From IMG/VR virus record IMGVR_UViG_3300028601_000022, positions 64,001 to 128,000 of that record: 64,000 nt of DNA. One strand, 5' to 3'. The stretch comes from a virus. Lineage: Duplodnaviria > Caudoviricetes. Shown in pieces: positions 8,705 to 25,580 of the stretch. The position numbers were made by a program, and so were the translations under genes. The notes beneath the pieces were generated by a model. It saw nothing but the letters and a program-made list of their open reading frames with translations. It did not search any database and was not told where the DNA came from. Every line of letters begins with the position of its first letter. Within the stretch, counting starts at the first letter, position 1.

Positions 8705-9256
8705 CTAGCAAGTTATTCTAAGTTCCAAGCGGATGCGTCCTGGGTCTTGTCCTGCTAGTTCTTTGAATGAAAAGTACAAGTACGGAGGCGTTACTCGGTT
8801 TAGATACGGGGCAAGCCAGGTTTCCTGGAGGATTTCATCCGTTTTATCAGTAACGCCTTTATACAGCCAGTCTACGCCCTGACACTCCGCGTAGGGCCTG
8901 GTATGCAATGCCCATTCACATGACGGAGAATCGCAGGTCATGCGAATCTGGAATATCTGAATATAGCGCTGAAGGGGCGGCCCTATAGGTATATTCAGAA
9001 TGCTGCCGCTTGCCCCAATGTCAGAAAGATGCACACTAGCCATGTTATAGTATTCACTGTCATGGCGGATTGGCGATATGGTTAGTATGGCATTGGGAAA
9101 AAGCTCATAGCTTCTTATGCTCATGTTGACCAGCCTTTGGTATGGAGATACGGTTGAACTCACCGTTAGTGAGAAGTTCTGCTGATAGGAGGTTATCCAT
9201 TGGGATAGTTTCGGCAGAACCCGCGCCTGAAACCAGAACAAAGAATTTGCGCCCAA
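8705..9256 (-). CDS. hypothetical protein
   Basis: 183 aa ORF; start uncertain. Confidence 0.5.
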   Translation of the reverse strand: MGANSLFWFQARVLPKLSQWITSYQQNFSLTVSSTVSPYQRLVNMSIRSYELFPNAILTISPIRHDSEYYNMASVHLSDIGASGSILNIPIGPPLQRYIQIFQIRMTCDSPSCEWALHTRPYAECQGVDWLYKGVTDKTDEILQETWLAPYLNRVTPPYLYFSFKELAGQDPGRIRLELRITC

Positions 9257-9339
9257 TTAGAAACTCGGCAACCTTCTTACGAATAAGGATGTCACCTGTC
9301 CTAAGACGCAGCCGAAGAGTCTTTTCAGGCATTTCCACA

Positions 9340-10188
9340 TTACAACCCCTTGAATAGGATGCTGTCTTCCGCCCTTCTGTAAACCTCAGCACAGAATCGG
9401 GGATTCCGTACGTAGGCGGCAAGAATGGTCTTTAACAATGCTTTCCCTTCATCCTTTGACGTTCTCGGGTTCTTGTGATTTTGCAACCGTGTAAAGGAAG
9501 AAGTGGAGTAGCAGGATTCAAGCTGAATAGTTCCGTTGGCCGATTCTGCTGCACCGCGCATCGTTCCAGGCAGCACATAGTCTATGAAAGGAGACGGACG
9601 GTCATTCCAGGCTTCGCCGAAGTGGTTCCCTATATCAACGAGGAATCTCCCTACGTTGCTAAAGATGGGAGTACGCTGGGCGAAGATACAGTCCTTGGCT
9701 ACTATACTTGCCCCGGAGTGTGCCCAGGCACCGAAAGCTCTTACGTCAAAGGCCTCGCCCCAGTTTTCTATGATGCACTGGTTCATAGTAACGCGCACGC
9801 CATCTTGTGCTTCCGGGCAGCGGCGCCCGCAGCCTAAAAAGAGAACGCGGTTAAGGTTCCACTCACCGAACTCTCGGTCAATTGATGGATAATCGCCGTT
9901 ACCGCAGAGCATTGCCTTTATGGAGCCGATAATAACGGAGTCTTCTACCGTAACTTGGGCTCCATAGATTCCTACGAGGGCTTCATCCTGCCTATCGTGA
10001 GGTATGTGGCTAAAGTCAATGATGCAGTTCCTAATAACGGTTTTCTTTGCGAGGGCTTTTTCATGGCCCGGGCCATAAATTTCAATGCCATGCCCTTCCG
10101 AAGCTATTTGCCCGGGTTGGACGATAATAAGGTTTTCGTAAAGTTGCACGTCCTGAAGTTCACCCGTAGGCGCCAGGGATGTATCCAC
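9340..10188 (-). CDS. right-handed beta-helix (pectin-lyase-like) protein
   Basis: Repeating V.I.NC.I / V.VEDS.I / V.MNQC.I strands, DEA and RRCP motifs; GTG start after AGGAG. Confidence 0.6.
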   Translation of the reverse strand: MDTSLAPTGELQDVQLYENLIIVQPGQIASEGHGIEIYGPGHEKALAKKTVIRNCIIDFSHIPHDRQDEALVGIYGAQVTVEDSVIIGSIKAMLCGNGDYPSIDREFGEWNLNRVLFLGCGRRCPEAQDGVRVTMNQCIIENWGEAFDVRAFGAWAHSGASIVAKDCIFAQRTPIFSNVGRFLVDIGNHFGEAWNDRPSPFIDYVLPGTMRGAAESANGTIQLESCYSTSSFTRLQNHKNPRTSKDEGKALLKTILAAYVRNPRFCAEVYRRAEDSILFKGL

Positions 10189-10224
10189 GGTTGTCTCCTA
10201 AAAATATGAATCGTATAGAGGTAG

Positions 10225-10262
10225 AAAACCTCCCTTACGCGCAAAACTTTGCAAGGGAGGTT
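10225..10262 (-). terminator. intrinsic terminator after terminase
   Basis: AACCTCCCTT...AAGGGAGGTT stem followed by Ts on the minus strand. Confidence 0.65.
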
Positions 10263-10305
10263 CCTATTACTAGACAAAATAGCTAGTTACTGATTGTTTA
10301 GGGTT

Positions 10306-12726
10306 CTACCGAGATAGAAGAACGGCAGTTCCGATGCCCGGCAGGGTTGTTACTACGTTGTTAGAACCGCCAGAGTTTCCTGAATACGCGCCTATAACAC
10401 CATCGAACTTTTCGCGGGTATATTCACCCTCACCGGTAAACATAGGACCGAACTCTTCACTTTCAACAAGGGCAACACCAAGGGCAGCGGCCCTAAGAAT
10501 GTCGTCTGTAAAGTCGTCTCCTGCATCCGAGTTCTTGGTGATGGTTCTTCCTGTATCCTTCGATACTAAAAGCTGAATCATGAGGTGAGAAACAGGCTTC
10601 TTGAACACCAGTTCCTGGAAGTCCTTATCCATATCAAGGATGTCCTTAAGCTCACCGTCAAGGCGCGGAAGAACCCAGGTTTCTGAATTGATACGTGTCC
10701 TTAAGGATTCAAAATCATCATATCGGAGAGAATACTGGGTTGCATCCACACCGAAGTCCGTGTACACCCTGGACTGAAAGTCCACACCTTGCCAGCTATC
10801 TGTGGCAAACAGCTTCACGTTGTAAGCCTCTATGATAGGGGCAATAACGTGTTTGTACACCATGTTGTGACTGATAGGGATACCGTCCATAGGCTGGATC
10901 TCTAGTAGACCGCTGGTTGCTATCAAGGCATCTTCTGGGTCGTCCGGGTGCGGTATAAGATGCGTAAGGGCAAGAGCAAAGGAGTTCTTCTTCCAGCCAC
11001 CGTCAATAGAAAGGCAACAAGGGAAGCTGTGAGGGTTCATCTTGATTGTAGGATACAGGGCCCTACCACCGAGAGAGTCCTTAACTACCTTGATTTTGTC
11101 GATGGCCAGAACATTAGGACGTTTGGAAAGAATAGGAACAATCTGTGAAGCCCTACGGATAAACGGGTCGCTTGCAAACGGTGGGTTGGAACCGTAATCT
11201 CGTTCTGCGGCAACCGGGTCTTCCATGTACTTTGTCCGAATAAACTCGCAGTCCCTTGGCATATTGGGGTTGAACTCCCAAGTAGCCATCTTCTTTCCGT
11301 ATATGTTACTGACGCGCTTTGACCTCTTGTACATGCCCATGATAAAGTCCTGCTTAGACCTGGTAGACGAGGTATACAGGCCATAGGCAGAGGGTGCCCC
11401 AGGGAAGCGCGGGAATATGCTTTCAAATGCCGTTTGTACAGTAGACAGGCTGTTGTTTAGAGCATCATAGGCTTGCCAGGCGTTCATCATAATCTTGTCA
11501 CCAGTCAAGAATGCGCCTTCGTCTATTGATGCAAGTATCCTGGTCTTACCGCGAAGCTTACGAAAGTCGCCATTAGAGAAGGATGCGTAGAGGCCCTTGT
11601 GGTTGTAGGCAATAAAGGTGTCCATATGCTTATACAGTTCAGTGCCAATACGCTTGCCCTCGGAGTCCAAGAACTGATGGTACATTCTATACCAAGGTGA
11701 CCAAGTAAAGACGTTATCCATAGGCGACCAGACGTTCTTGTAGGTTTCCTCCGACGTAACACCTACAAACGTAGCGTGAAACTCGGTAACGTCAAGTTGC
11801 CGCATGAACTTAGCCGGGCTAGGGAGTTGCAGATATTCATGGATGATAGCCGGTGACACCATCCACAAAAGACCGGTTTTACCAGAACGCTGACCAACGG
11901 CAAGAACGAGGCTAGCATACAGGGTGTGTTTTCCATCCTGCACAGCCTCGTACTTTGTCTTTTTGCACTTAGGGCATACACCCTTTGAGTACAGGACCAC
12001 ACGGTCAAGTATTTCATCGGGTGGAGTATCAACCTCAATCTTTTTCCGTACCCACTGCGTGTCCGAACAATACGGGCAGTATGCACCAAAGAAGTCAAGG
12101 GATATTTGCAGCTGCCTTGGATACAGTGGCTGGTTGAGGAAAGACGGGTCAATGATGAACTTGATAATGTTATCGGACTTTGGAAGGTCACGTTCATCCA
12201 CCAAAGCAAAGGCTTCTGGGTCGTAGTTCCTCGATACAATCTCCTCAATCTTGTCCAGCGCAGACCATTCAGACCTGTCTTTGTCCTGTAACGTAGGGTC
12301 AAGAAGCTTTTTAGGTTTCGGTGACTTTACAATAGGGCCAGGGATAGGCGTTGGCGTATCCTTGTCCAGGAGCTCAATCTTTCCTACGTCCTTCTTTTTC
12401 TTCTTTTTCCCCTTGCGTTCTGCCGATGCAGCCTTTTCGGCCCTCTTAAGCCGTTTCTTTTTGAGGTATTCCTCGTACTCAAGGGCATCAGGGAATATGG
12501 AATAGTCGTTGCGCTTGTCTGCCTTAGAAAAGGAGGTACAGAAATTGCGGCAACCCGGATTGTTCTTGCAGAGGACAATACAAGAGGTAGCGTATTCGCA
12601 ATGCCTGCAGGTGTACTTATAGTTCACCCACTTGCCGCATTTCTTTCCTGGCTTTTTGCATAGACCGTGCTTCAACAATGCACAGGTATCACAGGTCTTT
12701 TCGACCTTCTTCTTTACCTTCTCCAT
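10306..12726 (-). CDS. terminase large subunit with Cys-rich N-terminal extension
   Basis: YPRQ adenine motif, Walker A GQRSGKT, LRG, Walker B ASIDE, TWEFNP, nuclease SID...D...DD. Confidence 0.85.
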   Translation of the reverse strand: MEKVKKKVEKTCDTCALLKHGLCKKPGKKCGKWVNYKYTCRHCEYATSCIVLCKNNPGCRNFCTSFSKADKRNDYSIFPDALEYEEYLKKKRLKRAEKAASAERKGKKKKKKDVGKIELLDKDTPTPIPGPIVKSPKPKKLLDPTLQDKDRSEWSALDKIEEIVSRNYDPEAFALVDERDLPKSDNIIKFIIDPSFLNQPLYPRQLQISLDFFGAYCPYCSDTQWVRKKIEVDTPPDEILDRVVLYSKGVCPKCKKTKYEAVQDGKHTLYASLVLAVGQRSGKTGLLWMVSPAIIHEYLQLPSPAKFMRQLDVTEFHATFVGVTSEETYKNVWSPMDNVFTWSPWYRMYHQFLDSEGKRIGTELYKHMDTFIAYNHKGLYASFSNGDFRKLRGKTRILASIDEGAFLTGDKIMMNAWQAYDALNNSLSTVQTAFESIFPRFPGAPSAYGLYTSSTRSKQDFIMGMYKRSKRVSNIYGKKMATWEFNPNMPRDCEFIRTKYMEDPVAAERDYGSNPPFASDPFIRRASQIVPILSKRPNVLAIDKIKVVKDSLGGRALYPTIKMNPHSFPCCLSIDGGWKKNSFALALTHLIPHPDDPEDALIATSGLLEIQPMDGIPISHNMVYKHVIAPIIEAYNVKLFATDSWQGVDFQSRVYTDFGVDATQYSLRYDDFESLRTRINSETWVLPRLDGELKDILDMDKDFQELVFKKPVSHLMIQLLVSKDTGRTITKNSDAGDDFTDDILRAAALGVALVESEEFGPMFTGEGEYTREKFDGVIGAYSGNSGGSNNVVTTLPGIGTAVLLSR

Positions 12727-12735
12727 GCTTTACCT

Positions 12736-13830
12736 CTAGCTGGATACAGGGCCTACCGCCATGAACGAATATCGGTCGTTCTTTGCTGTGAGTTTGTACA
12801 GGTTACCGTTTGTTCCCACCTGGAAAGACACCCGCTCGGCGGAAGAACTTGCAGTTGCCAATGTAGAATGGAGGTATACCTCGGGTATTTCAAGGGAGAC
12901 CTTACCCAGCGTATTCTTTTCGACTTCAAAGGAGTCGCCGCAAGTGCCGTTCTTCGATTCCAAGCGCATCTTTCCCCTGGTACCGTTGAATGAAACCTTC
13001 ACAAGGTCAGCACCGCTGGACGTTGCACGAACGGAACTGAGGACAGGAAGAACATCCTTAGGAACCATTGTGATTTTGCCCTTTGTAAAGGCGCTGTCGT
13101 CCAACAGGGTTGCGTAGAAGTCCGTGTAGCCCTTCGTTTCGTCTTCAATGGTAGGAATGACCGCTTCAACGGTATCGCTTTCTACCACAAAAGAGTTTTC
13201 CGTAACCGAGATTCGGGCTTCGGAAGAAACAACGGACAAGACATCCATCACACGGGCCATAGGCACTGTAACTTCAAACGGCGTCTTGGAGATGGGCTCC
13301 GGCGAATCGTAGAATGCGCAGGAGTTCACCGATGCAAAGCGGACAGACATGCCGTCCTTTGAATTCCTGAAAAGAGCAGAGCCATTGAAGCTTGCGTCAG
13401 GTGTCTGGAACGTGAAGTCCTTGAATACCTCGCGCAAGAATGCCACCTTCTTTGCAGGTATGTTGATGAAGTCCAACCCTTCCCGGTCACGCGCAATGCT
13501 GTCCTTGGTGACGTCCAGGACATAGATGCTATTCTTGGAACCGCAGGCGATATCCAGCTTGGAATTGGCAGAGTCATAGGTGGCCTCGTACTCTGCACCG
13601 CGCATGGAAAGGGTGTTGTTGAATACCTCGGATGCAAGTCCGACCAGCCCTTTCTTTGTAACTTCCGCACCAAGAACAGCAATGCGGAGATAGTGAGTGG
13701 GCTCGTTGGCAATGAGCCATAACGTGCCTTCTTTCGGCTGTGCCAGTATGTAAATGGTCGTCAGGTCTTTAACGACCTTGGTAATAACCTTGAATGCCTC
13801 GGACAGGGCCTTCTTATCTGCTTTGAACAT
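12736..13830 (-). CDS. DNA sliding clamp, beta-subunit-like
   Basis: 364 aa three-domain alpha/beta pattern typical of DnaN; DnaX-like loader also in window. Confidence 0.65.
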   Translation of the reverse strand: MFKADKKALSEAFKVITKVVKDLTTIYILAQPKEGTLWLIANEPTHYLRIAVLGAEVTKKGLVGLASEVFNNTLSMRGAEYEATYDSANSKLDIACGSKNSIYVLDVTKDSIARDREGLDFINIPAKKVAFLREVFKDFTFQTPDASFNGSALFRNSKDGMSVRFASVNSCAFYDSPEPISKTPFEVTVPMARVMDVLSVVSSEARISVTENSFVVESDTVEAVIPTIEDETKGYTDFYATLLDDSAFTKGKITMVPKDVLPVLSSVRATSSGADLVKVSFNGTRGKMRLESKNGTCGDSFEVEKNTLGKVSLEIPEVYLHSTLATASSSAERVSFQVGTNGNLYKLTAKNDRYSFMAVGPVSS

Positions 13831-13861
13831 TGGCTAAATCCTCCTTACTATATATTAAACG

Positions 13862-14038
13862 CTACCGAGCGATTCGTCTGTTTTTAGAAGGTGCTCCTCC
13901 CCTATCCCTCTCAAACTCATCCTTAAGCACCTCATACATATAAAAGAACTTTTGGTACTCCATAGAAGCAAAGGAGTTGTAACTCGTATGCCGACTAAGG
14001 GAGTATTCCATATTCCAGATTGACTGGGGTTCTACGAA
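13862..14038 (-). CDS. short ORF overlapping the end of the tail chaperone (candidate frameshift extension)
   Basis: +1 frame relative to 13995..15359, ...MEYQKFFYMYEVLKDE..., fills gap to next gene. Confidence 0.45.
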   Translation of the reverse strand, partial: FVEPQSIWNMEYSLSRHTSYNSFASMEYQKFFYMYEVLKDEFERDRGGAPSKNRRIAR

Positions 14039-15359
14039 AGGGAATAAGGATGTCACCTGCCACAACATCGACTGTGTTTTCAGCACCACATACCTTGATG
14101 CCGCCTTTCTTTGCAGCTGGGGCGTCCAGATGTGCCTCCATCCATTTCGGTAGTTCCTTGTCTGGGTTAGGCGTTTCTGTAGAAAGTTCGCCATTCATAA
14201 CACCCTGAACGAGGTCTGCCGTAACCGCAGCCATTTCTTTTTGTTTTGTTTTGTCTAAAGGAATGCGACACCGGAACTTGATAGGGTCAGAGCCATGATA
14301 CAGCACCCGACCAAGTTCCCGCATGATAGCTCGGTCTTCTGGGTTTTCGGAAGCCTGCAAGAAATTGAAGTAGGATACTTCCCAAGGGTGAGAAACACAG
14401 CGGCAAGCATTCACTGCCATTGTATCTATGATTTGGTTGCCCTCATCTGTTACGAGGTATTCAGCACCCATCTTCCGCCAGTAACGGTCAGTCTTAATGA
14501 GGTGCATTACATCACCGATGGTGTGAGGCATAAACACAAACACCTCATCCGGGAATGTATGAAAACGAACCTTCAAAGGAAGTTCAATGTCTTCCAGAGT
14601 AGTGAAAGACACATCACTGAGGTGAAACTCGGCAAGGCCTGGTCTGCCGCAGGACTTGCATACGTACGGGTAGCGGAAAAGGGAGTCACCGAGGGACTGC
14701 AAATGCCGGGTATCACCAATAAAGGTGAAGTCCGAGAAGGTAAGCTCTAGCGGGCTCATGCCGAGGGTGTATATTCCCTCAAGCATAATTTCGTACTTCT
14801 GGTACAGCGAAACGTCCGGATTGTTGATGGCCTCAATGTCGGCTACGCTGTAGGGGGAGTAAGAAATAAGGTAGTCCTCAGGGTACACAACCCCGCCTGA
14901 CGGAACAGCCGGTATATGTATAGCCCTGCGCTGCCTTCGATTGCGATAGTATTCCCGCTCTATAGCTAGTGAGGCCTTGGTAAAGCGTGCCTGGTCGAGA
15001 AGTTCCTTCTTCTCTAGCCTCGTTGCGTTGAGGTCATCAAAGGCTGCCTGCAAAAAGGCCGGCACATTAGACGGTACGCCAGTAGGGGCAACCGGTGCAT
15101 CTACCACTCGGGTACCGGCCAGTGCTGGGTCATCAGTCAACACGAGGGGCTCACCGGAGTTGATTGCGTCAACCATCCAGTCTTCCAGGGGCTTCATGTT
15201 AGCCGGGTCGTCAGGCTTAGGGAGGACGGCAGATTTTGGCGGTTCTTTCTTTTGGTTAAGAATGTCGTCCTCCCGACCGGTCTGTATCGTAAGAACCTTT
15301 TCGGGTTTATGTGGTTTGGGAGGCTCTTTGAATTGACGGTTTACACGCTCACTGCTCAT
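13995..15359 (-). CDS. putative tail/baseplate assembly chaperone (T4 gp26-like)
   Basis: PSGG..YP, LT..DF..I, CxxC, P.TIGD and terminal C...CG pattern of large-myovirus chaperones. Confidence 0.55.
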   Translation of the reverse strand: MSSERVNRQFKEPPKPHKPEKVLTIQTGREDDILNQKKEPPKSAVLPKPDDPANMKPLEDWMVDAINSGEPLVLTDDPALAGTRVVDAPVAPTGVPSNVPAFLQAAFDDLNATRLEKKELLDQARFTKASLAIEREYYRNRRQRRAIHIPAVPSGGVVYPEDYLISYSPYSVADIEAINNPDVSLYQKYEIMLEGIYTLGMSPLELTFSDFTFIGDTRHLQSLGDSLFRYPYVCKSCGRPGLAEFHLSDVSFTTLEDIELPLKVRFHTFPDEVFVFMPHTIGDVMHLIKTDRYWRKMGAEYLVTDEGNQIIDTMAVNACRCVSHPWEVSYFNFLQASENPEDRAIMRELGRVLYHGSDPIKFRCRIPLDKTKQKEMAAVTADLVQGVMNGELSTETPNPDKELPKWMEAHLDAPAAKKGGIKVCGAENTVDVVAGDILIPFRRTPVNLEYGILP

Positions 15360-15367
15360 TGTTGCTC

Positions 15368-15895
15368 CTAAAGGTCTTCCTTGCGAACGTAGCCACGCGC
15401 TAGTGTAACCAGGTCGCTCATGGAAGAAGTAGCGGTGCTAAGGTTAAGGGACGCTTCCTCGTCCTTGCCAAGAGGCTCGAACTCTTGATGCACCCCAGTG
15501 AGGCAGTCTGCATTCTTTCCGTACAGACCCTTGCTGTCACGGGCAGCGCACACGTCCAACGGTGTGGAGATGTATATGAGGCGGAATTTATCCTCACCAA
15601 TAATACTTTGTGCTGCCTGCCGCATAGACTTCATTGGCGTAATCATGGACACAACGCACGATATGCCCTGGTCATTGCACAACTTGCAGATACCAGCAAC
15701 CCGTCGGACGTTTTCAAGCCGGTCTTCCAGGGAAAATCCCAGGTCAGAACAGATGCTTTGGCGGATAACATCACCGTCAAGGTGAAGGTAAGGCATCCGC
15801 ATTTTAGTGATAATTTCCTTGGCAAAAGTGGTCTTTCCGGCTCCTGACAAACCGAATATCCAGACCGTCCGCACCTTACTCGCGTTTACGCACAT
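15368..15895 (-). CDS. cysC: adenylyl-sulfate (APS) kinase
   Basis: WIFGLSGAGKTT, LDGD, DLGFSLEDRLENVRR, RDSKGLY, LTGV..EFEP. Confidence 0.93.
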   Translation of the reverse strand: MCVNASKVRTVWIFGLSGAGKTTFAKEIITKMRMPYLHLDGDVIRQSICSDLGFSLEDRLENVRRVAGICKLCNDQGISCVVSMITPMKSMRQAAQSIIGEDKFRLIYISTPLDVCAARDSKGLYGKNADCLTGVHQEFEPLGKDEEASLNLSTATSSMSDLVTLARGYVRKEDL

Positions 15896-15907
15896 TTAAT
15901 CCTCCAT

Positions 15908-16051
15908 TCAATACGTTACATCTGAATCGGCAGGATATACCCGCCCACACTTGATGCACTCCACTATCCTCTTTTTAGCCATGAAAATCTTAGGTTCAGT
16001 AGGGCTACCCAGTACGGTCGCCGCAGCAGATGTAGAAGAACCTCCGCTCAT
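15908..16051 (-). CDS. small protein with CxxC
   Basis: AAGGAGG RBS before ATG 16051; ECIKCG. Confidence 0.5.
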   Translation of the reverse strand: MSGGSSTSAAATVLGSPTEPKIFMAKKRIVECIKCGRVYPADSDVTY

Positions 16052-16109
16052 TATAGCCTCCTTTAGGTAACCTATCTTCATATACTTAAACGTCATTTAG
16101 GATATTGGA

Positions 16110-16212
16110 ACAAAACGTGTGTATTGACACGCGCAGCGAAAATATAACCCAATAGGAACGCCTACGGGTGCCCTATGGTGTGTCCAGGGTACTCATAGGC
16201 GCTCCTATTTCC
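16110..16212 (-). repeat. copy 1 of dispersed structured intergenic element (inverted relative to copies 2 and 3)
   Basis: Minus strand: AATAGGAGCGCCTATGAGTACCCTG...CGTAGGCGTTCCTATTGGGTTATATTTTC...GCGTGTCAATACAC. Confidence 0.75.
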
Positions 16213-16425
16213 TAGTTTTTCAACGGCCTGGTCTATTGGTAATCACCCTGCAACCGGCGTTTTGCTGCGGCATCCAGTACCTCATAGCACTTGCAGAAAC
16301 GGGTACCCGTGATATTACCCTACGAGGAAACACGGTAGAAAATGCCTTGGTATTAGGCGGAGTATAAGACATTCTCCTCGAAGGGTGGCGTTTCAAGAAG
16401 GGAAGAGGCCGGACACGCCCGTAAC

Positions 16426-17331
16426 CTACGCCTTTAGCTCAAGGAAGGCTACAACGTCTTCCCTCAGCGTGTTATCCGAATCTATGTAGCCGCAGCACTT
16501 CTTTGTGCAGGGCCCCTGGCGAAGGCAGGTATTGTTCTGCTTGTGACGGTCACCCATGTGCAGCCAGGTTTCATCATCCAAGGTGTAATACAGGTTGGTA
16601 GAATGCTGGCTAACACTCAACAGCGTATTGAGGTCAATGTCGCCTGAGCTATCGGCCTTTTCAAGAAGCCGAAAGAAGTCCGCCCGCTTAGGGAAGAATC
16701 CGGGAAGGTTATCTTCCATGTCGGCCTTGTCTTTGAACTTAATGAAAGGAACATACGGTGTGTTGAAGTCCACCCTACAGCCCCATTTTTCCTCGAACCC
16801 CTTCACTGTGAACTCACCCTTGAGGTAAGAATCAATGAATGCCTGGGTCATAATGATTTCCACATGCAGGGGTATTTCAGGATACAGGTCATGAAGGATC
16901 TTGACGTTCTCCTCCCAATGCTTCCGCGTTACCGGATTGAATCGGTATGCCGTATCCCAAGAGGTGCAGAGGAGGAATCTGTTAGCTACACCGAAGAACC
17001 GCAGCAACCCGCAGGCATGAAGCAGCCTGGTTTCATCGCCGTACATAAGGGACGTGCAAATAAGACCACGCTCGGTATGGCCGTACTTTATTCGGTATGC
17101 AATGGATACCAGAAGGTCTTCAAAGGCCCACTGAATCTTCCGTGATTCAAGTTGGCCGTCAAAGAACTCGCCGCCAATGAGGGAGATAGAGTCGCAGTTA
17201 CCTACTTCCTCTATCTTCTCCTTAGCAAAGCGCAATGATTCCAACTTATCCCTGACGTGTGGTATATCACGGTTACAGCAGAATGGGCAGTTGTGCCTGC
17301 AGTCCTTCCACAGTTCAAATTGAAGAAACAT
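16426..17331 (-). CDS. radical SAM enzyme (paralog A)
   Basis: QFELW..CRHNCPFC, IGGEF, TSWD..YRF, PGFFPKR, Cys-rich C-terminus. Confidence 0.85.
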   Translation of the reverse strand: MFLQFELWKDCRHNCPFCCNRDIPHVRDKLESLRFAKEKIEEVGNCDSISLIGGEFFDGQLESRKIQWAFEDLLVSIAYRIKYGHTERGLICTSLMYGDETRLLHACGLLRFFGVANRFLLCTSWDTAYRFNPVTRKHWEENVKILHDLYPEIPLHVEIIMTQAFIDSYLKGEFTVKGFEEKWGCRVDFNTPYVPFIKFKDKADMEDNLPGFFPKRADFFRLLEKADSSGDIDLNTLLSVSQHSTNLYYTLDDETWLHMGDRHKQNNTCLRQGPCTKKCCGYIDSDNTLREDVVAFLELKA

Positions 17332-17339
17332 GAGGCCTC

Positions 17340-18239
17340 CTAAAAGAAGTCTTCCTCCTCAAGGAGGAGATAGGGGAACTTGCCCATATCACCAATGACC
17401 AGGGTATCCACGCCGCCCACATTGTGGACATGCTGCGTAAGATAGTGGTTATTGATGTATCGGCCAATAGCAGACAGGAAACGCGCATAGTCTGCATGAT
17501 ATTTCATCTCGGCACAGAACATTCCCCGAACCATGTCAGGGTCGGAAGAACCTGCGCAGTCACAACCAATAGACAGGGCAAAGTTGCCGCGGGTGGCTTG
17601 ACGGTAGTTGTACAGGTCACCCTGCTTGTGGGTGACGGTAAACAGGTCAATTTCGCTGACCTGTGTTACGCACTTTACCGAGCCGTCCGTGTTTGTTCCG
17701 TAGGAGAACAAGTCCATGTAGAATCCGGGCTTGATGCACACAGGGTTGTCCGAGTTGCGGATGCTGGACAGCACCAGGCGAAAGTCAAGGTCAGTGTGGA
17801 CTTCAAACACCTCGAATATGTCACCGCTTTCCGTGGTCACAATGAGCAGGTCGTCAAACTGACCGCCGAATACCTTGCTACGGATTCCTATAAAGAGGAG
17901 CTTGGTAAGCCCTTGGCCTGGCTGCTGCGGATTAACATCCTTTACTGCCCTGGCCTTAGCAGGAAGCAGCCCCTTACTGTCGATGGTATCCAGCATTTCC
18001 CTGATGATAATGGTGTTTTCTTCCACATTGGGAATAGCATCGGCATCGAAATTGTGGTCGTTGAAGACCTGCTGGACTACGGCAAGAACAGGCTTGTTCA
18101 TCACAATCTTATAGAGGAAGTCCAGGGGAATTTCCCCGGATATAGTATTCTTGGAAAGAGAGCTTTCAACGGCAAAAAGGTTACTGTAGCCTTTAGCCGC
18201 AATAGCAGCCTTTATCTGGTCAAGGGTAGGTACTTTCAT
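17340..18239 (-). CDS. hypothetical protein inside the radical SAM cluster
   Basis: 299 aa; IGIRS..FDD..PGFY weakly recalls phage YkuD-like proteins, but catalytic residues are not evident. Confidence 0.55.
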   Translation of the reverse strand: MKVPTLDQIKAAIAAKGYSNLFAVESSLSKNTISGEIPLDFLYKIVMNKPVLAVVQQVFNDHNFDADAIPNVEENTIIIREMLDTIDSKGLLPAKARAVKDVNPQQPGQGLTKLLFIGIRSKVFGGQFDDLLIVTTESGDIFEVFEVHTDLDFRLVLSSIRNSDNPVCIKPGFYMDLFSYGTNTDGSVKCVTQVSEIDLFTVTHKQGDLYNYRQATRGNFALSIGCDCAGSSDPDMVRGMFCAEMKYHADYARFLSAIGRYINNHYLTQHVHNVGGVDTLVIGDMGKFPYLLLEEEDFF

Positions 18240-18259
18240 GTATTCCTCCGAATTACGGT

Positions 18260-19186
18260 TTAGGACATAAGGAGCTTGTCACAAAGCATGCAGGCTTCGG
18301 AATCAATGTAACCGGCATACGGGAAAGGGTGGCCACAAGGGAGAAAAGTTTCTGAGGCTATTTCGTAGCGCGTGTCTTTTTCCCTGTATTCAGGAACATC
18401 CGTGCCGGAGCGAAGTAGCGTATCCGCACGGAAGTGGATGTTGCATATTTTGTCAAAGACGTAGCATTCTTCCTCGGTGGACACCTTTGCAAGAAACTTG
18501 AGGAAGTCCTTGCGCTTTACAAAAAAGCCAGGCACCCGACGCTCCATTTCATTCTTGTCCTTGTACAGGCCCTTGATAAGGTGAGGCGGTTTGAAGAACA
18601 GCTGGGTATTGTAGGTATCCATGAAGTCATGGAAGTGAAGTTCACTGTTCAGGTAGCGTTCGATAGCATGCTGCGTGAGGATGATTGTGGTGTTGCAGCG
18701 GATGTTGGGATAGTTGGTCTTTATGTTGACCATGTTCTGCTTCCACGTCTCTTCCGACTTAGGCTTGTGAAAACGCCCGATGGTGTCGTAAGAGGTGATA
18801 ATCCAGAATCCTCCTGTCTTGGACACGGGGACAACGTCCTTAAACATGTCCAGCACTTCACACAGAACGGCACTTTCTTCCGTAAGGGCAGCACTCAACC
18901 AAGCACCCTCAAGCTTGCCAGCAAGAATGAGGTCTTTTGTAAGCTGGAGCAGGCGGAAGAACTGGTCGCGTATTTCAGGCGTATTGAGTTGCCCCTGCAT
19001 GAACTCGCCGCCAATGAAGGCCACGTTGGTGTAATCCTTCATATCACCGGCGAGGAGAAAAGCTTCGGCTCTGTCCATTTCGCGCTTTTTGTCTGCGTCT
19101 TCCGTTTTCCGAATGCGCTTGTTAAGGTAGCAGAACTTGCACCCTACGTTACACTCCGGCCACAACTCAAACTGAATAGCTTTCAT
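18260..19186 (-). CDS. radical SAM enzyme (paralog B)
   Basis: QFELW..CNVGCKFC, IGGEF, TSYD..GRF, CGH...YIDS..CMLCD. Confidence 0.87.
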   Translation of the reverse strand: MKAIQFELWPECNVGCKFCYLNKRIRKTEDADKKREMDRAEAFLLAGDMKDYTNVAFIGGEFMQGQLNTPEIRDQFFRLLQLTKDLILAGKLEGAWLSAALTEESAVLCEVLDMFKDVVPVSKTGGFWIITSYDTIGRFHKPKSEETWKQNMVNIKTNYPNIRCNTTIILTQHAIERYLNSELHFHDFMDTYNTQLFFKPPHLIKGLYKDKNEMERRVPGFFVKRKDFLKFLAKVSTEEECYVFDKICNIHFRADTLLRSGTDVPEYREKDTRYEIASETFLPCGHPFPYAGYIDSEACMLCDKLLMS

Positions 19187-19194
19187 ATAGGCTC

Positions 19195-20697
19195 CTACAG
19201 GGAGGTATCGGTAACGTCAATGTAAAAGAACCGACCACCCTGAACAAAGATAAGATGAATAGGAGTACCAGCAACGAACCTGCAAGCCTCGTCCAGCGTT
19301 TCGCATATGGGCTCTCCTCTACCATTCAGGCTTGTGTTAAGCAAGATAGGCAGATTGTAGTTCTCCATAAAGTGGTACAGTGTGGCATTCTCAGGAACGT
19401 CAAACAGAACCTGAGGTCTGGATGTTCCGTCTTGTGCCACTATAGACGGGTACTTGCGCTGATACCACGGTCGCACGTCCTCAGTAGCAAGCATGTAACG
19501 ATGCAGGTTATGGGGTTCATCCACTGCAAAGACCTTCGGGAAGAAGGTATCAAGAATGACAGGAGCAAACGGACGCCAGGACTCGCGTTCCTTGAGGCCA
19601 TTAACGTATTGTGCCATCCACGGGAAAGACGGATTGGCAAGAAGGCTTCTATGGCCCAGTGCGCGTGGGCCGTATTCACTGCCTCCCTCAAACCAAGCAA
19701 CCACATCACCGTGATTCAGCCATTCTGCAATGATTGGAGCTTCAATTTCTACATACTCATGGTTAGTTGGGAGGCTATACTTGCGGGAGTTGTAAGTAAG
19801 CGTACCGTTGACCTCGAGACCCTCTTCAAGGTGCGCTCTGCCAAGCATAAGGCCGGCATCAGTGCAAAGGGGAGGAACATAGAAGTTCTTCCACATTCCA
19901 AGCCGTGCTATCTTGCCGTTAAGGGTGCAGTTAAGGCCACACCCGCCTGTGATTATGAGGTTCTTGCTGGGCAGCTGCTTCATAAACTGAAGGAGGCTAA
20001 AAACGCTCCTCTCAAAGATGTGCTGCGTGTAACCGGCAACCCGGGTATAGTCGAACGTAAGTGTATCCGTTTGGGGCAGACCGAACTTCCGTTGGAAGAT
20101 ATCCTGTAGACCTGCAACAGGTTCAACCGTACTGCTAAGGTTGCCAGTGTTAGGGCTTACTGTAATGATGCCTTCCTTGTCTGCCCGAAAGTCCTCGTTG
20201 CAGTAGGTAGCAAGACCCATAACCTTACCGGCATGGCAAGTGCCTTCAAATGGGCTATTAGCACTCAACCCGCAGTGCTTTGCGGCAATGGAGAACATGC
20301 GACCAAGGGAGTATTCAGCAGAATAGCGGCGAACGGTATCGAACTTGGTTCCATTCGCCGTAAAGATACCGATAGCGTATTCGTTGTTTTCGTCGCACCC
20401 GTCAATAACAAGGATTGAGGCATCTTCAAATCCAGATTGAATGAAGGCACTCACTGCATGATACAGGTGGTGATTGTCACCATCACCGCAGTCTTTTGCA
20501 GGAGTGCCATCACTATCGGAATGATACGGGGTAGTTGTTTCAAGGTCGAGCTTGGAGGCAATATCTGCGCACCAAGCCCGTGCCTTACCGTGGTCTTGCT
20601 TGTCTTTCTTCCTCGTCAATCGTTCCTCCTCTATCATTGCAAGGAGTACGCCAGAATCAACGAGGCAGGATGCCATGCTAGAGGAGTATATGTTCAC
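19195..20697 (-). CDS. carbamoyltransferase, NodU/CmcH/TobZ family
   Basis: EEERLTRKK, HHLYHA, AGKVMGLA, GGCGLN, EYGPRALGHRS, RPFAP, LLNTSLN.RGEPI; GTG start after GGAGG. Confidence 0.92.
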   Translation of the reverse strand: MNIYSSSMASCLVDSGVLLAMIEEERLTRKKDKQDHGKARAWCADIASKLDLETTTPYHSDSDGTPAKDCGDGDNHHLYHAVSAFIQSGFEDASILVIDGCDENNEYAIGIFTANGTKFDTVRRYSAEYSLGRMFSIAAKHCGLSANSPFEGTCHAGKVMGLATYCNEDFRADKEGIITVSPNTGNLSSTVEPVAGLQDIFQRKFGLPQTDTLTFDYTRVAGYTQHIFERSVFSLLQFMKQLPSKNLIITGGCGLNCTLNGKIARLGMWKNFYVPPLCTDAGLMLGRAHLEEGLEVNGTLTYNSRKYSLPTNHEYVEIEAPIIAEWLNHGDVVAWFEGGSEYGPRALGHRSLLANPSFPWMAQYVNGLKERESWRPFAPVILDTFFPKVFAVDEPHNLHRYMLATEDVRPWYQRKYPSIVAQDGTSRPQVLFDVPENATLYHFMENYNLPILLNTSLNGRGEPICETLDEACRFVAGTPIHLIFVQGGRFFYIDVTDTSL

Positions 20698-20699
20698 GA

Positions 20700-21635
20700 T
20701 TATTTTCCTCCGAAGCTTGTCATGCAAAGAATGTCGCACAGCATGCACTTAGGGCTGTCAGAGTAGCACCTGTACAGTTCCGAGTGCCCGCAGTCCATAA
20801 GGACTTCCTTACCGTCCGCAAGAACAGGCTTCTGGTCATTTGTGCCGTAGCGATTGTGAAGGCCACCGTACTTGTAGATGCCAGAGTGATAAGAGGAAGA
20901 AACCGTGTCCATGTATATCTTATGGTGAGTCTTCTCCAGATAGAGGAGGAAGTTGAGGAAGTCCCTGCGCTTGAAGAAAAAGTCGGTAAGCTGCTTTCCT
21001 GTATGAACCGGGTGAGGGTACAAGAATACCAGGGAGCAGCCGGGTATTTCTTCATCCAGGAAACGCTGAATGCTGAATTTGCCGCTGAATACCTGGTCAA
21101 TGACGTGCTGTGTAAGAATCATTTGCACACCCACGCCGTAGTTGTAACGGTCACGGAAGGCCAGGATATTCTTCAGCGCAAGCAAGCGCATTTCTTCCGT
21201 CTTGTACCTGTATTTCAGGTCGTAGGAGAAGTTCACGTCAAGGACTTTGGAGGTACATTCCTCAACGATGCGGTCGCAAACACGATAGAGAAACGAGGGC
21301 TCATACATGCCATTGGTGACAGTAGAGTAGCGGCAGCGCGGGTTCTTGGAAACCTTCAGCACCTTCTCTATGATGTCCTCTATGAGGAGCATGAACTCAT
21401 CCTCATAGATAGGGTTACGGTAGCCGTAAACCTCACCGCCCAGCAAAGATATACCGTGGGAGAACTTGCCAGCCCAGTCAACGTAGTTGAGGTTATCGCG
21501 TATGTTCCGCACGTGGGTGATTATTTGCTGCAAGGACCGGTCTTGCCGGTCCAAGCGCAAACAGAAGTCGCAATTGCCAGTGCAGTTGGGAAGGACACCA
21601 TACTGCACACAGTATCCGTCAGGGCCAGAACTCAT
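20700..21635 (-). CDS. radical SAM enzyme (paralog C)
   Basis: CTGNCDFC, LGGEV, VTNG, SYDLKYRY, CGH...YSDS..CMLCD. Confidence 0.87.
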   Translation of the reverse strand: MSSGPDGYCVQYGVLPNCTGNCDFCLRLDRQDRSLQQIITHVRNIRDNLNYVDWAGKFSHGISLLGGEVYGYRNPIYEDEFMLLIEDIIEKVLKVSKNPRCRYSTVTNGMYEPSFLYRVCDRIVEECTSKVLDVNFSYDLKYRYKTEEMRLLALKNILAFRDRYNYGVGVQMILTQHVIDQVFSGKFSIQRFLDEEIPGCSLVFLYPHPVHTGKQLTDFFFKRRDFLNFLLYLEKTHHKIYMDTVSSSYHSGIYKYGGLHNRYGTNDQKPVLADGKEVLMDCGHSELYRCYSDSPKCMLCDILCMTSFGGK

Positions 21636-22588
21636 AGCCGGGCTCCCCCTTCAGTATCCAGCATTTTGAGGATGTCGCATGCGTAGCATTCATCCGAATC
21701 GGCATAACTGCGGCAGTACACAAAGTGGCCGCAAGGAGCAAGCAGGTCAAGGTCGTGGCTAGTGTGGTTCTTTACATCACGCCACACCGTCATGTCCTGG
21801 ATTGGTCGGTACACGTTCGTAGCACGCCGCCCTGACTGGTCTGCAAAGCGACGCCACAGGGGGAAGTTGTTCTTCATAAGAAAGAAGCAGAAAGCCACGA
21901 ACGAAGACCGCTTCGGAAGGAAGTCTGCCGGAAGCATAAGGCTGTGCCTGTCGCCAATTGTACCGATAAGGTCAAGCAAGCGACCAGGGAATACCTTGAG
22001 CATGCGCACGATTCGCTTGTCGCCGCCCATGTAGGCGTCGATAAGGAACTGCGACAGGATGGTGGTACAGTGGACTTTGCAGCCTGTACGCTTTACCTTG
22101 CCCAGGTTAATCCACCATTCGCGCTCGTTGGCTTTCGTGAAGCGGTACTTTATGTCATAGCTTGTGCCGACCATAACACGGTCAATGAAGCCTGCCGCTT
22201 TGAACTTTTCCAGAGTAAACTGGAGCAACGAGTCTTCATACTTGAATTTGAGGCTCGTGATGGGATACAGCTTTTTGAGCTTATCCTCCTTCATAAGGAG
22301 AATAAGCTCATCCAGGAGCCTTTCATAGGTAGGGAGCCATTCCTGGTCGTAACCATTCATAATCTCCCCACCCTGAAAGGACACCTCGTCAAACTGGTTC
22401 CAGTCGATAGTGGGCAGGTGGCCCAGAATCTGCTCCAGAATGTCTTTCTTTTCAGCGGGTGAGCGGAACCGCTCAGGGTCGCAGGTATTGTCGCCATTAG
22501 CCGTATAGGCTAGGGAGCAGAATGCGCACCTGTTCTCTCTGCATTCATTCCAGAACTCAAACTGGATGATTTCCTTGTCCTTTTTCAT
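21632..22588 (-). CDS. radical SAM enzyme (paralog D, CX4CX2C variant)
   Basis: QFEFW.ECRENRCAFC, QGGEI, TSYDIKYRF, CGH...YADS..CYACD. Confidence 0.8.
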   Translation of the reverse strand: MKKDKEIIQFEFWNECRENRCAFCSLAYTANGDNTCDPERFRSPAEKKDILEQILGHLPTIDWNQFDEVSFQGGEIMNGYDQEWLPTYERLLDELILLMKEDKLKKLYPITSLKFKYEDSLLQFTLEKFKAAGFIDRVMVGTSYDIKYRFTKANEREWWINLGKVKRTGCKVHCTTILSQFLIDAYMGGDKRIVRMLKVFPGRLLDLIGTIGDRHSLMLPADFLPKRSSFVAFCFFLMKNNFPLWRRFADQSGRRATNVYRPIQDMTVWRDVKNHTSHDLDLLAPCGHFVYCRSYADSDECYACDILKMLDTEGGARL

Positions 22589-22600
22589 ATTCCCCTCGGT

Positions 22601-23281
22601 CTATGCTACAAGATTATACCAGGCGATGTAGGAGCAGGAGCTTGAAGAACTGGAAGAGCAGGAACTGGAAGAACTCGAGGAGCACGAGGAGCTGGACGAG
22701 CTGGACGAGCAAGACGAGCAAGTAACTGCCATCGCGCCCCAACTGACAGAGCAGGGGGCGGCTTTGTATGCGTCGATGCCGTCCTTCAAAGCAGCCAACA
22801 TGCCGGTAATGTCAGAAGCCTTGATGGGCTCAAGTTCCGACGGCTCCGTGATTGCAGGAAGGGGATTGTTCACAAAGCAGCGCGAAGTGAGGCCATTCGT
22901 GGGGTTTGTAACCACCACAAAGCGCACCGAAGTGTAGGTGGCCAGGCATGTAAGGAAGTGAATCAGACCCTTCAGAGTGATAAGGTTGTCCATCTTGGAC
23001 GCAAACCCGTTTTCATTGATGAAGGTGTTCCATGCCGCAGTGAATGCCGCTGTGGTAACGATGGGTGGGCGGCCAGAGAAGTTAATGTCCAACCTGGCAG
23101 CGGCAGCCTTCAACTGGCCAGTAACCGTAACGGTACGGCCAGTGAAGCTGGGGTCTGTGATATTGCCTTTGTAAACGTCAAGGTTGTCGATAGAGGTCTT
23201 GAGGGTTTCAAAAGCCTCATTAACAACCTGTCCAAACGTAATAACTGCACCGGGTAAAATAGCCATAAGCTCAATCTCCAT
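22601..23281 (-). CDS. protein with C-terminal Cys/poly-Ser repeat; candidate substrate of the radical SAM cluster (alternative start 23266)
   Basis: Ends CSSC-S8-C-S7-C-S7-CSYIAWYNLVA; immediately upstream of the enzymes. Confidence 0.7.
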   Translation of the reverse strand: MEIELMAILPGAVITFGQVVNEAFETLKTSIDNLDVYKGNITDPSFTGRTVTVTGQLKAAAARLDINFSGRPPIVTTAAFTAAWNTFINENGFASKMDNLITLKGLIHFLTCLATYTSVRFVVVTNPTNGLTSRCFVNNPLPAITEPSELEPIKASDITGMLAALKDGIDAYKAAPCSVSWGAMAVTCSSCSSSSSSSSCSSSSSSSCSSSSSSSCSYIAWYNLVA

Positions 23282-23346
23282 GTAGTAACGGGACTTCTCC
23301 TAGAAAGAAGCCCCGCACGTTTTGTTTTCAGAGGCCAAAGCCGTTT

Positions 23347-23868
23347 TTACAGCTTTTCGAGAAAGGCGCCGACCAGGGCATGGTTGCCGAGAATACGCGA
23401 AAGCACAGAGAAGCCTTCCTTGACCTTGTACAGGTTCGTCATGTCGATGCGGGACATATCGACCTTGCCCATGAGCGAGGACATGAGGGGCGCCGTGCCG
23501 AGAAGGAAGATGCCGTAGAACATGGTTGGAATGGAGACCTTGGAATCATCCTGCTCAATGGTGAGGGGAATGTCGCAGGAAGTAAGGATGGAAAGGTACC
23601 ACTTGACCAGTTCCAAGATAAATTCATGGAGTTCGGTCTGCAGGGCCGACTTCACGTCAATGAATTCGGAAATTTCATTGAAGTAACAGTTTTCCTGCTT
23701 GAAGAAATCCTCGTCAAAGACGTTGTAGGAGTTCACCAAGCGGTACACGTTGAGAATGTCCACTTCGTTGCAGTCATTGCCTTCGGCAAGATAGCCGTTG
23801 GTAAGGAGCTTGCGGAAAACCTCAATCTTCTGTTCCAAGGGAAGTGCTTTGATTTCCTGGGGTGTCAT
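23347..23868 (-). CDS. hypothetical helical protein, first gene of the cluster
   Basis: 173 aa, AGGAG RBS, strong C-ending codon preference. Confidence 0.7.
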   Translation of the reverse strand: MTPQEIKALPLEQKIEVFRKLLTNGYLAEGNDCNEVDILNVYRLVNSYNVFDEDFFKQENCYFNEISEFIDVKSALQTELHEFILELVKWYLSILTSCDIPLTIEQDDSKVSIPTMFYGIFLLGTAPLMSSLMGKVDMSRIDMTNLYKVKEGFSVLSRILGNHALVGAFLEKL

Positions 23869-25106: not shown

Positions 25107-25580
25107 CTAGCTAGCGTACTGCGAGTGGTTGTAAGACCAAGGGCCCCAAACTGTGCCGTTGAAGCAGCGGCTAAGCACTTGTGCTACGCCACCTATGTCG
25201 GTGTTGTGCATGCGGGCACTCTGCAACACCTGCAGGGAGTCGTCGAGCATTACCGTAGACACATCCAGCCACCAGTAGGCAGTAACGTCCTGCGGAGGGT
25301 TAACGGATACCCCCTGAATAGACTGCATCAGGAACTTGCCATCCATCTTCATTTCGTCCCAGTTCTCCTCTTCGTGAAGAACCGTGTGGGGAACGATGCA
25401 AGTATCAATAACCTGCCAGTGATTGGGAGAAAGGCCGGGTTCCCTAGGCCCGCCAAGCTGTGGGCCACTTGCAGCAATCCAGACGTATATCTTGTCCTTA
25501 TGCCGTTTGATTGTGGGAATGTAGTAGTTATTCCCTGAGTTCCAATCCAGGGCAACCTGATTGAAGATACCGGGCAACAT
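25107..25580 (-). CDS. tail-fibre-related protein with pyocin-knob-like C-terminus
   Basis: G..NPP...WWLDV...LQ...RCFNGTVWGPWS. Confidence 0.55.
   Translation of the reverse strand: MLPGIFNQVALDWNSGNNYYIPTIKRHKDKIYVWIAASGPQLGGPREPGLSPNHWQVIDTCIVPHTVLHEEENWDEMKMDGKFLMQSIQGVSVNPPQDVTAYWWLDVSTVMLDDSLQVLQSARMHNTDIGGVAQVLSRCFNGTVWGPWSYNHSQYAS

Follow-up and report, generated by a model that had tools for sequence, protein, structure and literature searches.

An uncultured giant phage from landfill and wastewater encodes a folded protein that ends in 30 serines and cysteines, next to a helical partner protein and a set of related radical SAM (rSAM) enzymes. Because this gene set recurs in the related phages examined (27 of 27 loci seeded with one rSAM type), it probably represents an undescribed way of chemically modifying a phage tail-region protein, with the chemistry itself inferred from sequence. 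We found no paper describing the system and no GenBank phage carrying it.

A serine/cysteine-tailed protein within a set of radical SAM genes

The window analysed here, a stretch of 64,000 nucleotides (positions 64,001 to 128,000) of the 143-kb IMG/VR record IMGVR_UViG_3300028601_000022, contains the following features.

23347-23868 (-): H, a 173-aa helical protein
22601-23281 (-): CS, a 226-aa protein with a folded alpha/beta N-domain (about residues 1-187), a Ser/Cys tail and a hydrophobic end; the true start may be the Met at residue 6, as in the sequence P0001
22631-22720 (-): tail core of CS, C-S2-C-S8-C-S7-C-S7-C-S (25 Ser, 5 Cys), the proposed modification site
22604-22630 (-): terminal motif of CS, YIAWYNLVA, which may be a recognition handle or a structural strand
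21632-22588 (-): rSAM D-type, 318 aa
20700-21635 (-): rSAM C-type, 311 aa
19195-20748 (-): NodU/TobZ-family O-carbamoyltransferase, 517 aa from a GTG, start uncertain
18260-19186 (-): rSAM B-type, 308 aa
17340-18239 (-): U, a 299-aa clade-specific protein without a family match
16426-17331 (-): rSAM A-type, 301 aa
15368-15895 (-): APS kinase homolog, a neighbour not shown to belong to the module
43618-44565 (+): rSAM E-type, 315 aa, overlapping the start of a baseplate spike gene (44535-45422)

The run of eight minus-strand genes from H to rSAM A, reported in the first-pass annotation, was confirmed, with all eight open reading frames present and separated by gaps of 65, 12, -4, -49 (measured from the uncertain GTG start of the carbamoyltransferase), 8, 20 and 8 nt. 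The four rSAMs in this run are true paralogs (blastp E values of 6e-12 to 2e-28, 24-30% identity), each with an N-terminal CxxxCxxC motif (Cx4Cx2C in D), and B, C and D also carry a C-terminal CGH...Y.DS..CxxCD motif, which the A-type lacks and for which the A-type ortholog in the related locus L007 has no Cys in the corresponding region. Pfam Radical_SAM matches were below threshold for A, B and C and absent for D. However, the genome holds six members of this rSAM family rather than the four first annotated, one being the E-type enzyme, which belongs to a core type but lies 20 kb away, and the other lying outside the window. The carbamoyltransferase matches Carbam_trans_C (3e-40), Carbam_trans_N (1e-21) and PHROG 1601 (3e-72). 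The APS kinase homolog matches PF01583 (7e-37) and scores 127.5 bits with TIGR00455 against a cut-off of 138.7, but it is separated from rSAM A by a 329-nt gap and a 62-codon open reading frame. The flanks include a sliding-clamp-like gene as well as the terminase and a connector-like gene, and the gene next to the E-type rSAM has a Phage_base_V hit.

The CS tail is encoded by mixed TCN and AGY Ser codons and is the only Ser/Cys run in the record. It carries no listed indel in two independent assemblies, X2 (8,701 bases, 74 substitutions, 0 gaps) and the more divergent X4. In an AF2 model of CS, the N-domain is confident and residues 190-226 are disordered, and no fold match was found in PDB, BFVD or the Atlas. 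H, which the first-pass annotation passed over, has no Pfam, PHROG or NCBIfam hit, occurs as a single copy in the record and shows no invariant polar residues in the alignment of its family, so that it is probably a non-enzymatic adaptor or chaperone.

Conservation of the module across related phages

The first-pass annotation had proposed, as a test, whether the tailed protein co-occurs with the rSAM paralogs across phage genomes, and the outcome is positive. All 27 loci, namely 24 IMG/VR loci seeded with the C-type rSAM plus L009, L011 and the window, carry H (a family of 29 members), a Ser/Cys-tailed CS protein and 2-8 rSAMs. Among nine mis-binned MAG contigs, six show the same, two more are cut at the contig end and the last has CS homologs about 5 kb upstream. 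Contexts seeded from CS homologs and from rSAM fusion proteins show the same set, and the whole unit is duplicated in L018 and L030. Blastp clustering of the 27 loci found only three families common to all of them: the rSAMs, H and CS. The loci were seeded with closely related queries, so distant rSAM relatives without a CS protein may exist.

The rSAMs fall into four conserved types (E, A, C and B) that occur in 22-27 of the 27 loci, mostly in the order EACB (the C-type in 27 by construction, since it was the seed), with clade support of 0.98-1.0 for B, C and E (1.0 for C) and 0.70 for A. This points to distinct, non-redundant steps. The C-type is the best conserved core type (about 50% identity to the L007 and L009 members), whereas the D-type is an extra type found in only 5 locus sets, 65% identical to its ortholog in L046, the closest relative. 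The E-type, apart here, sits inside the module in other phages. The B-type (AF2 model with pLDDT 88.6) is fused in other phages to a P-loop ATPase or to an unknown domain of about 290 aa, and the A-type to a MiaB/RimO-like methylthiotransferase (P0128, P0136, P0155, P0164 and P0207).

Across 93 distinct family tails, the composition is 85% Ser, 14% Cys and under 1% other (1804 Ser, 305 Cys and 14 other residues), although many other residues are one mutation away from Ser codons. Cys number and spacing are not conserved: the roughly 8-residue Cys period is specific to this phage, two tails have no Cys at all and seven have only one. By contrast, a short end is conserved, with 55 of the 93 tails having exactly 8 residues after the tract, and YIAWYNLVA is a divergent form of this x-F-I-A-Y-M-[KND]-[IL] end.

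The carbamoyltransferase is an accessory gene, present in a minority of loci (the window, L009, L028, L029, L030, L043, L045, L046 and the contig of the CS homolog P0212 only), and the only homolog of U sits at the same position in L046 (36% identity). The APS kinase is not conserved next to the cluster, being absent from that position even in L046, and no sulfotransferase or ATP sulfurylase is seen in the record. The accessory enzymes act on hydroxyls or insert sulfur, and they sit between the rSAM genes. The neighbours of the module are baseplate, fibre and spike genes, and two CS homologs, P0211 and P0212, carry long N-terminal extensions.

Comparison with characterized radical SAM systems

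The closest solved relative of the rSAM family profile is the peptide epimerase YydG/EpeE of Bacillus subtilis, which acts on the epipeptide substrate YydF (PDB 8ai1-8ai6; E 9e-10 over profile positions 1-178), the next hit being viperin at 9e-4. The two share CxxxCxxC, GGE and an SYD motif, a size of about 300 aa and, for YydG/EpeE, action on a ribosomal peptide. However, the match covers only the rSAM core and does not reach the C-terminal part of YydG/EpeE, where its catalytic residues are mutated in the solved structures; the C-terminal halves do not align, and searches of NCBIfam and Pfam gave no family-level hit. Furthermore, one enzyme and one short peptide in that system contrast with four to eight paralogs and a 200-aa folded protein with a Ser/Cys tract here, set in a phage tail gene module. 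Foldseek top hits include SuiB, EpeE and anSME, but the fold matches are generic (TM 0.43-0.53) and also include enzymes that act on nucleotides or sugars (viperin, BlsE, DesII and MoaA). SPASM and twitch models did not hit.

The CXXX-repeat radical SAM target system (TIGR04114/TIGR04115, PF27846) also pairs Cys-containing low-complexity tracts with rSAM enzymes, and the Atlas search gave a weak lead to PF27846 (score 0.82, 19% of the members of one cluster). In that system, Cys comes every fourth residue and the maturases are SPASM-type, whereas here the tract is poly-Ser with irregular or absent Cys and the rSAMs are non-SPASM; none of these NCBIfam models hit CS or the rSAMs. The anaerobic sulfatase-maturing enzyme (anSME; PDB 4k36) treats Ser and Cys alike, turning either into formylglycine, which would explain a tract restricted to Ser and Cys. 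Yet anSME has a full SPASM domain with two auxiliary clusters and a defined sulfatase motif, neither of which is present here, and there was no family hit. The sactipeptide and ranthipeptide maturases (CteB/SCIFF, PapB, SkfB and AlbA) crosslink Cys-rich cores, and PapB gave a weak N-terminal hit (E 0.0015, 17.8 bits against a cut-off of 340), with CteB and SkfB among the fold matches, but no SPASM or twitch hit was obtained, the A-type lacks the CGH...CxxC motif and some tails have no Cys or only one. Finally, the carbamoyltransferase shares both Pfam domains and, by eye, the HHxxH metal motif with the NodU/TobZ/CmcH enzymes but scores far below the NodU equivalog cut-off (E 5e-31, 108 against 1000 bits), and a protein Ser hydroxyl is not known as an acceptor for such enzymes.

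Models of tail modification

Several models can be envisioned to explain these trends. The glycan model posits that the poly-Ser tail is an O-glycosylation acceptor and that the rSAMs, the carbamoyltransferase and perhaps the APS kinase build or decorate an unusual sugar attached to the tail or to another virion part. Specifically, L045 and L028 interleave rSAMs with DegT aminotransferases, a 4,6-dehydratase, GT2 enzymes and carbamoyltransferases, the P0212 contig has glycosyltransferases and sugar-phosphate enzymes nearby, characterized NodU/TobZ-type enzymes carbamoylate sugars or small molecules, and BlsE and DesII appear among the fold hits. The rSAMs could therefore build a glycan rather than modify the peptide. 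However, homologs of the GT2, DegT and dehydratase genes were found only in L028, L045 and, weakly, L026 among the loci examined, and the record of the window has one GT2 homolog, far from the cluster. In addition, four conserved paralogous rSAMs are unusual for a sugar pathway, the best sequence relative is a peptide epimerase, and a glycosylation linker would tolerate Thr, which is nearly absent from the tails (6 of 2123 residues). We consider this model possible but unlikely.

Two further models are less likely still. Under the released-peptide model, a true RiPP, the N-domain would act as a long leader and the modified tail would be cut off as a bioactive peptide; the layout does resemble a recognition sequence followed by a low-complexity core and several maturases, and long folded leaders exist (nitrile-hydratase-like leaders). 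Conversely, none of the accessory families scanned was a protease or an exporter (the one peptidase-type domain found is the autoproteolytic domain of fibre proteins upstream), tail-less paralogs that end exactly at the strand before the tail sit next to the tailed copies, some homologs are fused behind large extra domains, and the setting is one of fibre and baseplate genes. In the absence of any functional link, the tract would be only a flexible linker of a structural protein and the rSAMs, merely syntenic, would do something else, such as nucleotide or DNA modification or counter-defence, in line with the viperin-type matches and with one D-type paralog lying far from any CS gene. Yet the adjacency survives rearrangement, strand changes and duplication across proteins only about 25% identical, and a plain linker would not exclude Gly, Thr, Asn, Pro and Ala so strictly, nor keep a fixed 8-residue end. 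Least likely is a carrier or scaffold role, in which the tail would hold sulfur or an iron-sulfur cluster for the rSAMs together with the lysine-less IscS-like proteins encoded in 16 of 27 loci, alongside methylthiotransferase and Cys/Met PLP enzymes in L011 and L034, given that Ser dominates the tails, some of which have no Cys or only one, and that the IscS-like proteins appear, by eye, to lack the cofactor lysine and are absent from this window.

The interpretation in the first-pass annotation, a RiPP-like system heavily modifying the tail to give either a decorated virion protein or a released peptide, with carbamoylation and possibly sulfation, is thus only partly supported: the layout, the co-occurrence, the peptide-modifying nearest relative and the tail-gene setting hold, but the carbamoyltransferase is accessory, the APS kinase is not conserved and H is one of three universal parts. 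The gene content, paralogy, co-occurrence, orthogroups, tail composition and nearest solved relative are established by our survey, whereas the identity of the tail as the substrate, to which no experiment or structure links any of these rSAMs, every chemical step (crosslink, epimer, formylglycine, carbamate or sulfate) and incorporation into the virion, suggested by gene neighbourhood alone in a family with only uncultured members, are inferences.

We favour, somewhat more likely than not, a conserved jumbo-phage protein-maturation module, consisting of CS (a folded protein of about 190 aa ending in a pure Ser/Cys tract and a short fixed hydrophobic end), H and four anciently diverged rSAM types, to which this phage adds type D. 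Under this model, the rSAMs, as distant relatives of YydG/EpeE, would abstract hydrogen atoms from Ser/Cys residues of the disordered tail, presented by the terminal motif and perhaps by H, to yield non-standard residues: in order of preference, D-residues by C-alpha epimerization, products of C-beta oxidation of Ser/Cys towards formylglycine, or Cys-to-carbon thioethers. Lineage-specific enzymes would then optionally decorate the tail hydroxyls, here the O-carbamoyltransferase, possibly with U, and elsewhere GT2 glycosyltransferases with amino-sugar enzymes, methylthiotransferases and lysine-less IscS-like proteins. The product would stay on a tail, baseplate or fibre-associated protein rather than being released.

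Genomic setting and composition of the radical SAM module

The window comprises bases 64001-128000 of a 142.8-kb IMG/VR virus record that is estimated to be 52% complete, so that the phage is jumbo-sized. Its large terminase (10306-12726) is about 31% identical to those of Lu11-like and Erwinia jumbo phages. Near-identical DNA occurs in a landfill sequencing run, which is the likely source, and in activated-sludge and wastewater runs from several studies, and one sludge contig spans 15300-24000 with 74 substitutions and no gaps. The minus strand carries a tightly packed run of genes, confirming the arrangement described in the first-pass annotation:

23347-23868, minus strand, H, helical protein
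22601-23281, minus strand, CS, Ser/Cys-tailed protein
21632-22588, minus strand, radical SAM (rSAM) enzyme of type D
20700-21635, minus strand, rSAM enzyme of type C
19195-20748, minus strand, carbamoyltransferase
18260-19186, minus strand, rSAM enzyme of type B
17340-18239, minus strand, U, protein of unknown function
16426-17331, minus strand, rSAM enzyme of type A

The four rSAMs are paralogs (E 6e-12 to 2e-28) and belong to the radical SAM superfamily. The N-terminal CxxxCxxC cluster motif is seen in A, B and C, whereas D has Cx4Cx2C; G59, G60 and E61 of the GGE SAM-binding motif are invariant in an alignment of 20 sequences; and the AF2 model of B (pLDDT 88.6) matches rSAM structures, although Pfam detects the family only below the gathering score. 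A further rSAM of the family, type E, lies outside the cluster at 43618-44565, where it overlaps by 31 nt the start of a gene with a Phage_base_V (spike OB) domain (the two genes together spanning 43618-45422) and is divergent from a 768-aa transglycosylase or tape-measure-like gene (41245-43551). Outside the window, a second D-type paralog (14146-15048 in the coordinates of the genome, G000) stands alone, with no Ser/Cys-tailed ORF among its neighbours (G000 9237-20161) and with a gene about 2 kb upstream that looks QueD-like by eye. Yet another, weak radical SAM gene (34562-35398; Pfam 5e-4), sits among replication genes and does not belong to this family.

The tail of CS reads C-S2-C-S8-C-S7-C-S7-C-S followed by YIAWYNLVA. 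Its Ser codons mix TCN and AGY, so it is not a slippage repeat; it is the only such run in the record; and it shows no listed indel in the two assemblies that cover it, X2 (99% identical) and the more divergent X4. Short contigs in one metatranscriptome library cover parts of the cluster, but these may be DNA and are not taken as evidence of expression, and a scan for promoters and terminators was at chance level.

Linkage of the tailed protein, its helical partner and the rSAM family

CS has 60 homologs in a set of 5.8 billion proteins, all about 200-260 aa long and of the same design. In 93 distinct tails, the tract is 85% Ser, 14% Cys and under 1% anything else, with a median length of 23 residues (range 8-36) and 0-7 Cys at irregular spacing, and 55 tails end with exactly eight more residues, with the consensus x-F-I-A-Y-M-[KND]-[IL]. 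The 8-residue Cys period of the present tail is rejected as a family feature, given that Cys positions differ even among relatives that are 47-58% identical. Many loci also hold a tail-less paralog that stops at the strand just before the tail. The N-domain of CS is confidently predicted to fold but gave no convincing fold match: Foldseek searches of PDB and BFVD returned nothing at E 0.001 or better, VIA-align reached a best Z of 5.5, and the Atlas gave TM 0.33 or less, with an Atlas feature search yielding only unnamed viral clusters and a weak lead to PF27846. H gave no usable Atlas hit, and a complex prediction of H with CS scored 0.01, a value that says nothing either way about their association.

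The first-pass annotation had proposed co-occurrence across phage genomes as a test of the link between the tailed protein and the rSAMs. An alignment of C-type rSAMs retrieved 24 IMG/VR loci, all on contigs of 65-314 kb. Together with two further loci (L009 and L011) and the window, all 27 loci hold the rSAM family (133 genes), the H family (29 genes) and the CS family (48 genes), and two loci (L018 and L030) have the whole unit twice. Of nine metagenome-assembled-genome contigs with inconsistent taxonomic labels, which are most likely mis-binned phage, six show the same set, two are cut at the contig end and one has CS homologs about 5 kb upstream. Contexts reached from CS homologs and from rSAM fusion proteins agree. 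By contrast, megablast of the cluster and tblastn of rSAM B and of a C-type rSAM against 50,697 GenBank phage records gave no match, and literature searches on radical SAM enzymes in jumbo or huge phages, RiPPs and virions, polyserine, tSAM, Cxxx repeats and YydG in phages found no description of the system in the library searched. A 66.7-kb contig (L052, 1-11524) holds H, two tailed CS genes, the E-type, a methylthiotransferase-A fusion, the C-type and a P-loop-B fusion, followed directly by replication genes; the module is therefore not confined to contigs of jumbo size.

A tree of 135 rSAMs resolves types A, B, C and E in 22-27 of 27 loci, usually in the order E-A-C-B, whereas type D is rare and present in five locus sets. 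The family profile finds 1145 cluster representatives at E 0.001 or better, one of which (P0075) has weak intein and Hint matches inserted near its N-terminus. Some B-types are fused to a P-loop ATPase, which is not related to the APS kinase of the window, or to an unknown domain of about 290 aa; invariant K, E, D and DD positions suggested that the latter might be kinase-like, but neither a PDB profile search nor Pfam supported this, and it remains only an idea. Some A-types are fused to MiaB/RimO-like methylthiotransferases.

The upstream neighbours of the module are fibre proteins with autoproteolytic chaperone domains, baseplate gp6- and gp8-like genes, or a connector-like gene. Two CS homologs carry long N-terminal extensions, and a by-eye reading of the N-terminal repeats of one homolog (P0212) as leucine-rich repeats got no Pfam support. 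A 157-aa protein of the window (25107-25580) shares its last 90 or so residues with the C-terminus of a 1357-aa protein elsewhere in the genome (G000 35872-39945) and with a 330-aa protein just upstream of H in another locus (L047 8458-9450), which looks like a shared fibre-end module. A related 285-kb phage contig (L009) encodes a ribosomal protein S21 homolog (3029-3229) a few kb from the module.

Relationship to known enzyme families and accessory genes

Against PDB sequences, the family profile hits the peptide epimerase YydG/EpeE at 9e-10, with viperin next at 9e-4. The YydG match covers only the rSAM core (profile positions 1-178), the C-terminal parts do not align, and no YydG NCBIfam model was hit at E 0.01 or better. 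Fold matches of the AF2 model of B are generic, comprising SuiB, BlsE, viperin, EpeE and anSME at TM 0.43-0.53. The enzymes do not show the SPASM or twitch domain of peptide maturases such as anSME and the sacti- and ranthipeptide synthases, as no SPASM hit was obtained in Pfam or NCBIfam; a C-terminal CGH...CxxCD motif (CGH...Y.DS..CxxCD in B, C and D) has 3-4 Cys in B, C, D and E and is absent in the A-type. Nor does the system correspond to the CXXX-repeat rSAM target system (TIGR04114/TIGR04115), whose target has Cys at every fourth residue: no NCBIfam model hit CS or any rSAM, and Cys spacing in the 93 tails ranges from 1 to 13 with no dominant period of 4.

The carbamoyltransferase is a clear member of the NodU/TobZ family, with its Kae1-like and YrdC-like domains (Carbam_trans_N and Carbam_trans_C) matched at 1e-21 and 3e-40, both above the gathering score, and PHROG 1601 matched at 3e-72. 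However, it occurs in only a minority of loci, namely the window, L009, L028, L029, L030, L043, L045, L046 and the contig of P0212. The closest relative with usable context, L046 (CS 58% identical), keeps the full order H-CS-D-C-carbamoyltransferase-B-U-A but has other genes where the window has the APS kinase. The latter is recognizable as an adenylyl-sulfate kinase (7e-37), but its conserved linkage with the module is not borne out. It is separated from rSAM A by a 329-nt non-coding gap (16097-16425) and a 62-codon ORF with a CxxC pair, and consensus scans found no clear promoter in the gap and only one weak terminator-like hairpin nearby, just below the gap at 16115-16132. No Sulfotransfer_1, Sulfotransfer_3 or ATP-sulfurylase match was found in the record, which is only about 52% complete.

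Other lineages insert lysine-less IscS-like genes (16 of 27 loci), a methylthiotransferase with a Cys/Met PLP enzyme, or DegT aminotransferases with a 4,6-dehydratase and GT2 enzymes. A buffalo-rumen contig (L045, 1-16400) interleaves eight rSAMs of this family with two carbamoyltransferases, two DegT aminotransferases, a 4,6-dehydratase and a GT2 glycosyltransferase, followed on the other strand by two HINT-domain proteins.

A putative maturation pathway for a tail-region protein

The RiPP-like interpretation offered in the first-pass annotation is partly supported. A putative ribosomal precursor is encoded next to its candidate modifying enzymes in 27 of 27 loci and in the contexts seeded from CS, in agreement with the general definition of a RiPP biosynthetic cluster. 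Conversely, proteolytic release and export of a small mature peptide find no support: only the rSAM, H and CS families are common to all 27 loci, none of the accessory families scanned was a protease or an exporter, and the putative substrate is a folded protein of about 200 aa with tail-less paralogs.

The strict three-way linkage of CS, H and the rSAMs points to the tail as the rSAM substrate, as do the duplication of the unit, the chemical purity of the tract, the conserved end and the nearest solved relative, and in this view the hydroxyl-directed enzymes would be optional tailoring. We consider this reading somewhat more likely than not. Gene content, linkage and tail composition are direct observations, whereas the identity of the substrate, its post-translational modification and every step of the chemistry are inferred. 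The main rival, which we regard as unlikely, is that the enzymes build a glycan for the Ser tract.

A more far-reaching possibility, which remains tentative, is that giant phages of gut, rumen and wastewater share an undescribed virion-protein hypermodification pathway. Four conserved YydG-like rSAMs would convert a genetically encoded poly-Ser/Cys tail into a non-proteinogenic polymer made of D-residues, aldehydes or thioether links, which lineage-specific enzymes would then carbamoylate, glycosylate or methylthiolate, resulting in a chemically hardened or adhesive appendage on the tail or baseplate.

If the tail is modified as proposed, it would represent a radical-SAM, RiPP-style maturation acting on a structural protein of a bacterial virus, using an enzyme family for which we found no characterized member or description. 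This family is sizeable and occurs in uncultured large phages from landfill, activated sludge and wastewater, and in assemblies from chicken, rabbit and buffalo-rumen samples. With the putative substrate and all candidate enzymes encoded side by side, the system is directly testable. It could reveal new protein chemistry on serine, and could also explain how some giant phages stabilize or functionalize their host-contact parts.
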